Source: Eledone cirrhosa
Lineage: Eukaryota
Length of the DNA: 64,000 nucleotides
Direction of reading: 5' to 3'
Assembly: GCA_964016885.1 (NCBI GenBank)
Contig: OZ024751.1
Location: forward strand, 33,356,001 to 33,420,000
Under the pieces are notes generated by a model. It ran no database searches and had not been told where the DNA came from. It was given only the letters and a program-made list of their open reading frames with translations. Shown here in pieces: positions 39,417-51,103 of this stretch. The position numbers and the translations under genes were made by a program. Numbering within the stretch: position 1 is the stretch's first letter; each line of letters begins with the position of its first letter.

Positions 39417-39459
39417 AATATGGTTTTATAAATATAGTTTCCATTTATTTAATATCGTA

Positions 39460-40810
39460 TAATATATATGTATATATATAATATATATAATATATATGTA
39501 TATATATAATATATATAATATATATGTATGTATATATATATATAATATATATGTATATATATATAATATATATGTATATATATAATATATATAATATGTA
39601 TATATATATATAATATATATGTATATATATATAATATATATGTATATATATAATATATATAATATATATGTATATATATAATATATATGTATATATATAT
39701 AATATATATAATATATATGTATATATATAATATATATGTATATATATATAATATATATAATATATATGTATATATATATAATATATATAATATATATGTA
39801 TATATATATAATATATATAATATATATGTATATATATATAATATATATAATATATATGTATATATATATAATATATATAATATATATGTATATATATATA
39901 ATATATATAATATATATGTATATATATATAATATATATAATATATATGTATATATATAATATATATAATATATATGTATATATATAATATATATGTATAT
40001 ATATAATATATAATATATATGTATATATATAATATATAATATATATGTATATATATAATATATATGTATATGTATATATATAATATATATGTATATATAT
40101 AATATATATGTATATATATAATATATATGTATATATATAATATATATGTATATATATAATATATATGTATATATATAATATATATGTATATATATATATA
40201 TATATACATATATATTATATATATATATACATATATATTATATATATACATATATATTATATATATACATATATATTATATATATACATATATATTATAT
40301 ATTATACATATATATTATATATATACATATATATTATATATTATACATATATATTATATATATACATATATATTATATATTATACATATATATTATATAT
40401 ATACATATATATTATATATTATACATATATATTATATATATATACATATATATTATATATATATACATATATATTATATATATTCATATATATTATATAT
40501 ATATATATATACATATATATTATATATATTCATATATATTATATATATATATATACATATATATTATATATATTCATATATATTATATATATACATATAT
40601 ATTATATATATACATATATATTATATATATACATATATATTATATATATACATATATATCATATATATATATATATATATTATATATATACATATATATT
40701 ATATATATATATATGTATATATATTATATATATATATATATATATGTATATATATTATATATATATATATATGTATGTATATATATTATATATATATATA
40801 TATATGTGTG
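39460..40810. repeat. (TA)n-derived array with an internal polarity switch near 40200
   Basis: TATGTATATATATAA units give way to their reverse complement TTATATATATACATA. Confidence 0.93.
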
Positions 40811-43499
40811 TAGATATGTTCCATTTAAAGCGTAAACGTCTGGAATATTTAACATATTTTCAATACTTGCCTGAATGGCTTGTAGCCAACTGCGAGATCA
40901 CTTTTTATATTTTTACCATTTTATAGCAATTACACAAGTCATTATTGAGTTCATAACTCCAACAGAAATGTACTCTACAGTCTCAGTTCCTAACTAATAA
41001 GATTCTACTTCTAGTTTCTATCTTATTGCTGTTGGCTTTTTTCTCGGTTATTTTTTCAGTGTCGTTGTTGTCCTGTCCAGCCATGTTGTTTGTAACAAAT
41101 CTCTGCCTGGTTAAATTCAAGTTTGAGACGAATTTTACTCCATCTTGAATAAAAGGTTTCATCAACGAATGTAGTCATTAAAATAACAAGTTATTTAACA
41201 TGGCTGATAGATGGAGTTAATGACAGAGATAGTTATAATCATAAAATTGAATGAAAAGATTCCCATGTCAATCATACGTCTGCTTCTCTTATCTATCTAT
41301 ATATATATATATATATATATATATATAATGTGTGTGTGTGGACGTATGTATATATGGATGTATATATATACATGTATGTATGTATATTTATATATTTATG
41401 GACATATGTATGTACGAAGGTATGTGTATACGGAAGTATGTGTGTATGTATATATGTATGTATGTATGTATGTATATATATGCATGTGTATATATGTATG
41501 TAAGTATATATGTGTATATATGTATATATATATGTATATACACATATATGTGTATATACATATATATATGTGTGTGTGTGTATATATATATATTAAATAT
41601 ATATATATATATATATGAGAGAGTGAAAGAGACATACCTAATTACATACATTCATTTATATATATATATATATATACATATAGGGAGAAGGTGGGGGGGG
41701 GGGATATACATCCATGTGTGTGTGTGTGTGTGTGTGTGTGTGTGAGCAGGCATGCCTTATTATGAGTAACTGTATTACTAGTAACATGGAACTGAATTCA
41801 AATCTAGCTTCTTATTATATTACATGAATGTCATTATGTAATTCTGCCATCTCAGCTGGTGAATAATATTGAAAGTTCATGTTCGACAAACAGACCCTAC
41901 GTTTATCCATGCAATATAATTACTAAGATTGTTTACTCACCATATAGTTAGCTTCGTTCTTTTAGGCTGCTTTTCCCCTCTTGCTTATACTAAGCAGAAA
42001 CGACAGGTATGTTTATATAAATAAAAAAGACGAAAGTGCCAGCGTTGTAGGTGAAGGTGAAGGTGGAGTTCACTGCCCTAACCTCATAAGCTGGTATATG
42101 TGCAAACATACACATACACACACACACAGTGGGTGACAAACACACACTCCTTCCTCCAGAAACGAATTACGCACACACACATATACAAACACACTAAAAC
42201 ACACACATATATATATATATTTATATATAGACTGGCAGATAGATAGATAGATATATGATTTTACAGATCGATACGATATTATGATGCATAGTGGCATCTT
42301 ATATTTTCTCAACTCTGCCGCACACAGACCTGCACGATAATAAAAGACGTGAACACTGAAATTAGAGTGAATTCAATATGATACAACAGTGAAGGAACAA
42401 TTCCCAAACAGAACCTACCAGGGCGAATGTGGCATTCAAGAGTTTCAACTAGAACATTATATATATATATATATATATATATATATATATATATATATAT
42501 ATAATGTATGTATGTATGTATATATAAATCAGTCTTTTAAGGGGCTACAGTCTTTTAAGGGGCTACAGCAATCCATCTAGGGCGGTAATTATCAACAAGA
42601 ACAAAACTATGATGCCAACCTAAATGGAATAATCTCTTTTTCTTACCAAATCTCTATTCCTCGATAAATGTTTGCTTTCCCTGGACACGCGCCTTTTTTC
42701 TACACTAATTCAATGGAAAATAAGGAACTGGTGTATTATTCAATATAAATATAGTTCCTTTATATTTATTAGAATGTTATTTCTGTTAAAATGGTGTTTT
42801 ATTTTGAAATAGCAATGGCATACTGTCTCAAGATTTTGTAATTGAATTATTTACGAAGAATTTGTGAGTTTGATGAAGAAGATTTGATTGCTATATCGAA
42901 CAGGTGAGGCGATTTCCTAGAAATCTTATTGATAGCTGGAAGAAGAAAGAGAGAAAGATTTGAATATTTCAAAGACTTTATGATTATTTCGATGATTTTG
43001 TCCAATATTTTATGTCCAATATTTTATGTCCATTAACTTAGACCAAGAAGGTTATTAATTTCCTTGAATCAATAAAGAAATAGTAAATTCCTTTAACTTT
43101 TAGAGAACTTAGTTTTGATTGTATATCTGAGAGTCTAGAAGAGAGACTAACATAAAATCTACTTCTAAAGTTAGGTTGTTGTTGTTGTCTGTTGCTACTG
43201 CTGTTGTTGTTGATGATGATGATGATGAAGTACTTGTTTCTGATAATGATGTGTGACCCCAGGTCAGTTTGATTGATCAGGCTTATGATGAAATGTATTC
43301 CAGTCTTGACAATCATATATTTTAGAGTTATGTAGGACTACATCATCTAATGTCTTTTCCTGAGACGACGAGGCATAATTTTAGAGGGGAGAATCAGTAA
43401 ATGACAACACACAGTCAATATTGTTGTTATCTTTGTTATGAACTACAGGTTTAGCAAAAATCATTGGATTGGCCTCTTGATGTTTCTGATAAAATACAC

Positions 43500-43937
43500 T
43501 TTCCAAAGATGCCAGGTATTGGGATCGAACCCGGAACATTGTGGTTGCGAAGCAAACTATTTAACTCTTCACCAATGCCTCTGTCCACGGAGAATGGACT
43601 AAAGAGAAAATAATCACGAACGGCTTTATGGGGGAGTGTTCCAGTTGTTGGATCAACGGGACAGCCTACTCGTTAAATTAATATGCACGTGGCTGAGTAT
43701 TCAACAGATACGTGTATCTTTAAAATAATTCTCAGGGAGATTCAGCTTCATATAACATGTAACAAGACTAGACATCTGATGAGATTCCACACTGTTTCTA
43801 TCTACCCAATTCCACTTCCAAGACTCGGGTCAACCCAACGCTAGGGTGATTACATTTAACCAAGATTCCACAGAGATGTAACCAGGAACCTTATGAACGC
43901 AAAACGAACCTCATGACCATTCAGCCATGATTGCCTC
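43500..43937 (-). mobile_element. Two SINE family B copies flanking another dispersed repeat
   Basis: GGGATCGAACCCGG (reverse B box) at about 43521. The middle segment 43630-43770 resembles 37455-37670 reversed. Confidence 0.55.
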
Positions 43938-50400: not shown

Positions 50401-51010
50401 TGTGTATATATATATATATATATATATGTATATATATATGTATATATATGTGTATATATATGTGTATATATATGTGTATATATATGTGTATATATATGTG
50501 TATATATATGTATATATATATATGTGTATATATATGTGTATATATATGTGTATATATATGTGTATATATATGTGCATATATATGTATACATATATGTATA
50601 TATATATGTATATATATGTATATATATATATGTATATATATGTATATATATATGTATATATATATATGTATATATATATATGTATATATATGTATATATA
50701 TGTATATATATATATGTATATATATATATGTATATATATATGTATATATATATATGTATATATATATGTATATATATATGTATATATATATGTATATATA
50801 TATATATGTATATATATATATGTATATATATATATATGTATATATATATATATGTATATATATATATGTATATATATATATGTATATATATATATGTATA
50901 TATATATATGTATATATATATATGTATATATATATATGTATATATATATATGTATATATATATATATATATATACATATATATATATATATATATGTATA
51001 TATATGTATA
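47477..51010. repeat. About 3.5 kb (TA)n/TG array with TGAA/TGGA sub-blocks
   Basis: Direct inspection. Confidence 0.97.
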
Positions 51011-51038
51011 TATGATATTAACAAATGGAAACTATATA

Positions 51039-51103
51039 TATTTCATTATACATATTTCAAGGACACCAAGTTAAATTATGGTGTGCTTTCATCAGATAAA
51101 ATA
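51039..51103 (-). ncRNA. Type I hammerhead motif (mirror copy)
   Basis: Reverse complement of 51235-51299. Confidence 0.8.

Follow-up and report, generated by a model that had tools for sequence, protein, structure and literature searches.

The 64,000-nt stretch of the Eledone cirrhosa genome analysed here (the window; contig OZ024751.1, positions 33,356,001 to 33,420,000 of the forward strand) contains two palindromic elements, at 39 and 51 kb, that we assign to the Penelope-like elements (PLEs). Each consists of two inverted arms, corresponding to pseudo-long terminal repeats (pLTRs), joined head to head: a short, tailless arm and a long arm that continues into a tail. The two elements and the TA-derived arrays adjoining them comprise the following features.

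38768..38992, no strand: tail-side TA-rich array of the 39-kb element, measuring 176 nt by our own score and about 226 nt by TRF, with interruption units in common with the 1.35-kb array
38993..39083, minus strand: tail of the 39-kb element, about 91 nt; in tandem copies the same stretch is the 5' untranslated region (UTR) leading into the open reading frame (ORF)
39084..39270, minus strand: long arm of the 39-kb element, pLTR part, 187 nt; predicted type I hammerhead, core start at 39182 on the minus strand
39271..39457, plus strand: short tailless arm of the 39-kb element, 187 nt; predicted hammerhead core start at 39359; fixed end site TTAATATCG
39458..40805, no strand: compound TA array, 1,348 nt, on the short-arm side of the 39-kb element
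47479..51013, no strand: compound (TA)nTG array, 3.5 kb, on the short-arm side of the 51-kb element
51014..51164, minus strand: short tailless arm of the 51-kb element, with a 14-nt deletion; predicted hammerhead core at 51095
51165..51173, no strand: 9-nt unpaired spacer at the head-to-head joint of the 51-kb element
51174..51339, plus strand: pLTR part of the long arm, 51-kb element; hammerhead core predicted at 51243; similarity of 95-96% to the ends of the ORF-bearing copies L083, L102, and L185
51340..51430, plus strand: tail of the 51-kb element, 91 nt, followed by just 9 nt of TA

The 39-kb palindrome is near-perfect: its arms, centred on AGATCT at 39270/39271, differed by one mismatch over 187 nt each. 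The last base of its short arm, which reads TTAATATCG, was 39457, and the TA-derived array started directly after it. The short arm of the 51-kb element, reading TTAATATCA on the minus strand, ended at the homologous base and adjoined an array of about 3,535 nt. The first-pass annotation of the window had described this arrangement correctly: short arms that stop at the same homologous base and run into TA-derived arrays of 1.3 and 3.5 kb, and long arms with tails of approximately 90 nt. It did not mention that the tail ends adjoin TA as well, with 176 nt at 39 kb and 9 nt at 51 kb.

The identity of the elements was evaluated using copies elsewhere in the genome. With the 51-kb long arm as query, 40 of 1,148 candidates were scored, and copies 96-98% alike were found on many contigs; the 24-mer adjoining the short end had 5,680 exact matches, with copies on both strands, versus none for a control. 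The sample for further analysis comprised 160 stretches of 8-10 kb from contig C1, 1.41 Mb altogether, numbered as loci (e.g., L066): 60 around the first 90 24-mer matches listed and 100 around listed end matches (59 short-end places and 41 of 52 tail-end places). In L066, L083, and L102, the ends were 3.6-4.3 kb apart and enclosed an ORF that, read by its motifs, encodes a reverse transcriptase (RT) followed by a C-terminal GIY-YIG-type endonuclease. Compared with the ends of ORF-bearing copies, the window arms were 84-87% alike at 39 kb and 92-96% at 51 kb. Translations from L066, L288, L281, and L286 revealed a CxCx5C linker, an endonuclease lacking CCHH, and CxxC and CxH adjacent to the conserved E and N. 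DKT was found in place of DKG in the N-terminal ORF piece of L066 and in L281, and the N-terminal motif at the RWK position was RWR in L208 and L281 and MWR in L185. The Neptune clade, which has a CX2-5CxxC linker and CCHH, was considered and dropped because the linker was CxCx5C and CCHH was absent.

A hammerhead core (CUGANGA/GAAA) with stems I and II was predicted in all four arms of the 39-kb and 51-kb elements. In an alignment of 14 copies, 13 of them distinct, 97% of cells were paired and three pairs had changed on both sides, with compensatory changes in stem II. When the window was scanned with Rfam at E up to 1, the best 150 of 325 rows were all of microRNA families, below their gathering scores, and included no hammerhead. 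Judged by sequence, both palindromes are made of 3' stumps, placed head to head, of a single Penelope-like family that has Hydra-clade motifs, and the earlier proposal that their arms are pLTR ends of PLEs is borne out by the linkage of these ends to an ORF encoding RT and GIY-YIG.

The sampled arms stopped at two fixed sites, both in TA repeats. Of 334 arms, 163 stopped at the tailless site, 157 at the tail site about 90 nt away, and 14 elsewhere. The short-arm end shared by the two window elements thus recurred in 163 arms of the 160 loci, which is not chance; the first-pass suggestion of a fixed end point holds for 320 of the 334 arms, and short-arm ends were not random among copies. At least 6 nt of TA-type sequence adjoined 160/163 short ends and 153/157 tail ends, in agreement with the earlier suggestion of (TA)n targeting. 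The patterns used to choose 100 of the 160 loci contained TATA, which does not apply to the partner ends or to the first 60 loci. In L185 and L208, which are tandem copies, the tail led straight into the ORF start. Therefore, both ends lie within the 5' UTR, and each is located at a short TA-like motif. At L074, L099, L192, L207, and L289, the tail ends of related copies were observed at the far side of a TA run beside another copy's end. Each of these loci represents repeated insertion into a single TA tract.

Head-to-head pairs were assembled using a 5.6-kb pairing rule, which joined some unrelated neighbours. Among the 121 pairs, 109 combined a tailless with a tailed arm, three had two tails, one had none, and eight included an unclassed arm. 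If ends were chosen freely, about half of the pairs would be expected to have one tail. The first 60 loci alone yielded 38 such pairs out of 41; in the second set of 100 loci, the anchoring arm was selected and the partner arm was not.

Arm lengths were compared in 100 resolved insertions, 10 of 110 having been dropped as ambiguous. The tailless arm was longer in 49 insertions and the tailed arm in 21, and the two were within 20 nt of each other in 30. The ORF could be in either arm: it was borne by the tailless arm in L288 and L289, in contrast to L066. The arms of a given insertion were less than 93% alike in 1 of 63 cases, as compared to 52% of cross pairs. At least one arm was 165-200 nt long in 60 of the 100 insertions, many starting at one base; the 39-kb and 51-kb elements fall into this size class. 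Because either arm can be longer and both arms derive from one subfamily, it is likely that both cut target strands prime, one per site. We estimate a probability of roughly 0.75 that the palindromes are short head-to-head Penelope-like insertions with both ends at fixed TA-repeat sites, likely made via two cut strands that each prime the RT.

According to this model, both strands of a TA tract would be cut and each would prime reverse transcription, one at each of the two sites. The two ends would be internal RT start sites, by analogy with in vitro results for another PLE, and the TATA end of the primer may pair with the short UA motif at each site. The template could be one RNA for both cDNAs or RNAs of one source. 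The two cDNAs would be joined head to head at their 3' ends, presumably by microhomology. Arms of 165-200 nt may be run-offs at the 5' end of the RNA; a cap signature (extra G) was not evident on inspection of the inner hot spot. Finally, tailless arms may more often be the longer ones because one RT sets off before the other and its cDNA is displaced by the second.

Some results weigh against this model. Pfam found no family in the L066 protein or in the neighbouring PLE ORF of L066. Of 13 long tailed arms, 12 had a long tailless partner, and with long arms coupled in this way the two primings are not independent. Moreover, the 30 insertions with near-equal arms and the near-perfect 39-kb palindrome are also explained by fold-back, in which the first cDNA would fold onto itself and be copied as far as a fixed stop. 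Such a process would yield nearly identical arms, coupled long arms, and perfect or near-perfect palindromes such as the one centred on AGATCT, and self-priming is proposed in the consulted part of PMC3846280. However, simple fold-back cannot give both outcomes, because the tailless arm was longer in 49 insertions and the tailed arm in 21. Folding of a tailed cDNA would leave the tailed arm longer, yet the longer tailless arms include the ORF-bearing ones of L288 and L289; folding of a tailless cDNA is unable to supply the tail. We consider fold-back unlikely as the origin of the palindromes, and it may account for a subset, some perfect palindromes among them. The elements are also short, AT-rich, inverted, and in a TA context, as would be expected of derivatives of DNA transposons with terminal inverted repeats, similar to miniature inverted-repeat transposable elements, or of assembly artefacts. 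There is next to no chance that they are either: this idea is already refuted because ORF-bearing copies have the same ends. It also has to contend with the asymmetric ends, with inner ends that vary from 0 to more than 3 kb, with long copies carrying RT and GIY-YIG, with arms whose hammerheads have compensatory changes, and with thousands of copies on both strands.

The window contains two further foldbacks, each of a family of its own.

16745..16946, no strand: foldback of a sister family; tail on the left with 15 nt of TA, short arm on the right with 23 nt of TA
61531..61943, no strand: foldback of a third family; short arm on the left with 36 nt of TA, tail of about 140 nt on the right
61944..62846, no strand: compound TA array, 903 nt, on the tail side of the 61.5-kb element, a counter-example to the asymmetry proposed in the first-pass annotation

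The 16.8-kb family had 27,453 exact 30-mer matches. Its copy in L281 has a 712-aa ORF that is 39% identical to the L066 protein, and the tail of this copy continued into the ORF start. The 61.5-kb family had 272 exact matches and was linked in L286 to a GIY-YIG-type ORF piece with CxCx5C. The first-pass annotation was right about the layout of these foldbacks, a short arm abutting TA and a tailed long arm. The arrays did not follow suit: the short arms adjoined no more than 23 and 36 nt of TA, and the tail of the 61.5-kb element, not its short arm, adjoined the 903-nt array. A 2.1-kb array at 14485-16586 was not in contact with the 16.8-kb element. Between that array and the 16.8-kb tail is one copy of a 128-nt repeat (16597-16724) whose other copy, 80% alike, is on the opposite strand at 29249-29376; it is possibly the end of another TA-targeting element. 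Another PLE is represented by a 5'-truncated ORF at 30459-31244 on the plus strand (Pfam GIY-YIG, E = 1.8e-06), directly after a (TA)n run; its endonuclease has a CxxC inside the core, unlike the Hydra-type families. A 376-nt palindrome at 60076-60451, with arms 96% alike, had no flanking TA runs and no hammerhead by the descriptor used.

The lengths of the arrays on the two sides were compared using our own X-drop score. In the 109 pairs with one tail, the median array was 41 nt at the short arm and 51 nt at the tail (p = 0.32); the short-arm array was longer in 46 pairs and the tail array in 60. Similarly, long pure TA occurred genome-wide at 419 of 2,718 short ends (15.4%) and 234 of 1,581 tail ends (14.8%; p = 0.60), the tail pattern covering one subfamily and using 27 TA units versus 28 for the short-end pattern. 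Short and tail ends had medians of 41 and 29 nt, respectively, in the 16.8-kb family (50 and 23 ends; p = 0.38) and of 31 and 31.5 nt in the 61.5-kb family (23 and 12 ends). Among the four window elements, the long array was at the short arm in two, at the tail in one, and at neither in one. Thus, the test of asymmetry that had been proposed revealed no difference between the sides. Because the tailless end does not have longer TA runs than the tailed end, the two giant arrays of the window are likely the outcome of ordinary microsatellite growth and not of element activity.

The counts for the largest arrays lean the other way. Arrays of at least 500 nt adjoined 6/163 short ends and 3/157 tail ends, and arrays of at least 1 kb adjoined 3/163 and 0/157, respectively; the latter difference was not significant (p = 0.25), the tail-side arrays including one of 995 nt and one cut off at 582, and these kilobase-class counts rest on the 160 loci of one contig. 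Two elements of L099 share one array, which was counted twice among the short ends. Pooling with the 16.8-kb family gave 4/213 versus 0/180 (p = 0.13) for arrays of at least 1 kb. Element-adjoining arrays also exceeded background ones, with medians of 47 versus 32 nt and at least 500 nt in 9/297 versus 27/1,933 (p = 0.047), the background arrays often being flanked by other repeat families and hence not element-free. Insertion in proportion to array length predicts that 8.8% of sides would have 500-nt arrays and 2.6% would have 1-kb arrays; the observed values were lower, 3.0% and 1.0%. Of the 12 arrays of at least 1 kb in the 1.41 Mb of loci, nine did not touch the main element family.

The arrays were compound, with TG, CA, and AA interrupting TA in changing, drifting units, and were not pure (TA)n. 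An element-derived motif was found in 1 of 163 arrays and in neither of the window arrays. The two flanks of an insertion shared interruptions more than shuffled pairs did (0.133 versus 0.065, p = 0.0002; 44 of 108 pairs usable). In the 39-kb element, one copy of the 1.35-kb array's unit was present next to the tail (8-mer Jaccard 0.37) versus many next to the short arm; in L173, L182, and L192, the shared unit was present many times on both sides. The compound units, the near-absence of element motifs, and the shared interruptions are consistent with insertion into arrays already present, or with duplication of the target and its later growth. The kilobase arrays are likely compound microsatellites, pre-existing or later grown by slippage, and independent of the arm.

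The first-pass annotation had speculated that the RT extends TA by reiterative synthesis at the short arm, a telomerase-like process that would build the giant arrays from the start site of that arm. Two of the window's kilobase arrays do touch short arms, PLE RTs are sister to telomerase RTs according to the relevant part of PMC8557442, and the trend among arrays of at least 1 kb, single-family and pooled, leans toward this view. We nonetheless regard it as very improbable: the medians, the genome-wide long pure TA, and two sister families revealed no difference between the sides, the 903-nt array at 61.9 kb adjoins a tail, most kilobase arrays lie away from the main family, and the arrays are compound, share interruptions across the flanks, and lack the element motif. 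Also unlikely is that insertion seeds one-sided growth, the duplicated, interrupted piece of target becoming the unit of a slippage-driven array. The single 39-kb unit beside the tail and the excess sharing of interruptions between flanks favour such seeding, but the same sharing is expected from insertion into an existing compound array, L173, L182, and L192 have multiple units on both sides, and there is no overall side bias. Because of the 4/213 versus 0/180 trend and the 39-kb unit that stands once at the tail and many times at the short arm, there is room for a rare event: in about 1-2% of insertions, priming at the tailless end would repeatedly re-copy the interrupted TA target and seed one-sided compound arrays of kilobase size. 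We hold this to be decidedly unlikely.

In L099 (4370-5630), two head-to-head elements flank a mirror-symmetric 349-nt TA array, one on either side, making the whole locus one larger palindrome, either a fold-back duplication or an assembly artefact.

We compared the elements with known systems using excerpts of the cited papers. PMC8557442 (Craig et al. 2021) characterizes the Hydra clade by DKT and RWK, a linker of the form CxCx5C, the absence of CCHH, and CxxC and CxH next to E and N; it describes (TA)n insertion in almost all Hydra families, and its supplement lists Hydra-1_Obim with a (TA)n preference. The elements described here resemble these C-terminal endonuclease-bearing (EN+) PLEs in the order of RT and GIY-YIG, in DKT, the linker, the absence of CCHH, and CxxC and CxH, and in having a pLTR hammerhead, (TA)n insertion, an inverted 5'-truncated copy, and a one-sided tail. 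They differ in having RWR where the clade has RWK, a unit of about 3.7 kb where the clade is generally below 3 kb, and a tail of about 90 nt (61.5-kb family, about 140 nt) where the clade has 30-40 bp. The clade assignment made here from motifs is putative.

In PMC11167929 (Frangieh et al. 2024), the protein of a PLE was shown in vitro to cut AT-rich DNA on both strands and to extend them, with two internal start sites delimiting the tail. This element, Poseidon PAc of the green anole, is thus like the present one in its two fixed internal starts bounding a tail, its AT-rich target, and the cutting and extension of both strands. The PAc sites are inside the ORF, 30-40 nt apart, whereas the Eledone cirrhosa tail is in the 5' UTR; different sites on the two strands were used in 109 of 113 classed pairs here, and the excerpts of PMC11167929 contain no such statement for PAc. 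The Penelope families of Adineta vaga (Arkhipova et al. 2013, PMC3846280) share the head-to-head inverted pLTRs, the palindromic joint, and the optional tail on one pLTR. Their layout was explained by self-priming; here, either arm can be longer, which self-priming alone does not give. Finally, telomerase and the endonuclease-lacking (EN-minus) PLEs on telomeric repeats (PMC8557442) have a related RT that primes on a simple repeat, but we saw no sign here of templated repeat addition, the arrays being symmetric and without element sequence. We met no report of dual priming or microsatellite expansion by PLEs among titles and abstract openings, a weak negative with subscription literature poorly covered, and the excerpts of PMC13282606 and bioRxiv 10.64898/2026.07.22.740005 held nothing further on ends or arrays.

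At the 51-kb site, four sequencing runs yielded no record across the element (23 listed; three with most of the flank, all from one sample). One run with another organism label had a flat, low depth of 17-20 over 51302-51457, with the rest of the 51-kb element nearly uncovered, which reflects a shared insertion or chance and is not readable as an orthologous site.

The window also contains a 28-bp minisatellite of about 123 copies (5338-8749). A dispersed repeat of 120-220 nt, which we take to be SINE-like (SINE, short interspersed nuclear element), has nine copies, at 502-622, 13006-13225, 13584-13727, 17026-17219, 20974-21187, 51494-51669, 54361-54591, 56919-57134, and 61101-61245; one of these is inside the TA array at 53732-55342.

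Inverted pLTRs, a one-sided tail, fixed ends, and (TA)n targeting are already published for PLEs (excerpts of PMC8557442, PMC3846280, and PMC11167929). The layout is thus known, and what is new here is the negative test of symmetry and the counts for the one-tail rule. Giant TA arrays adjoining these elements are not to be read as telomerase-like products. For an open step of Penelope integration, the data provide numbers: one tail per insertion in nearly all cases, either arm longer, and arms that come from one source and are coupled in length. These counts predict different start sites on the two target strands, which is testable in the published in vitro system.

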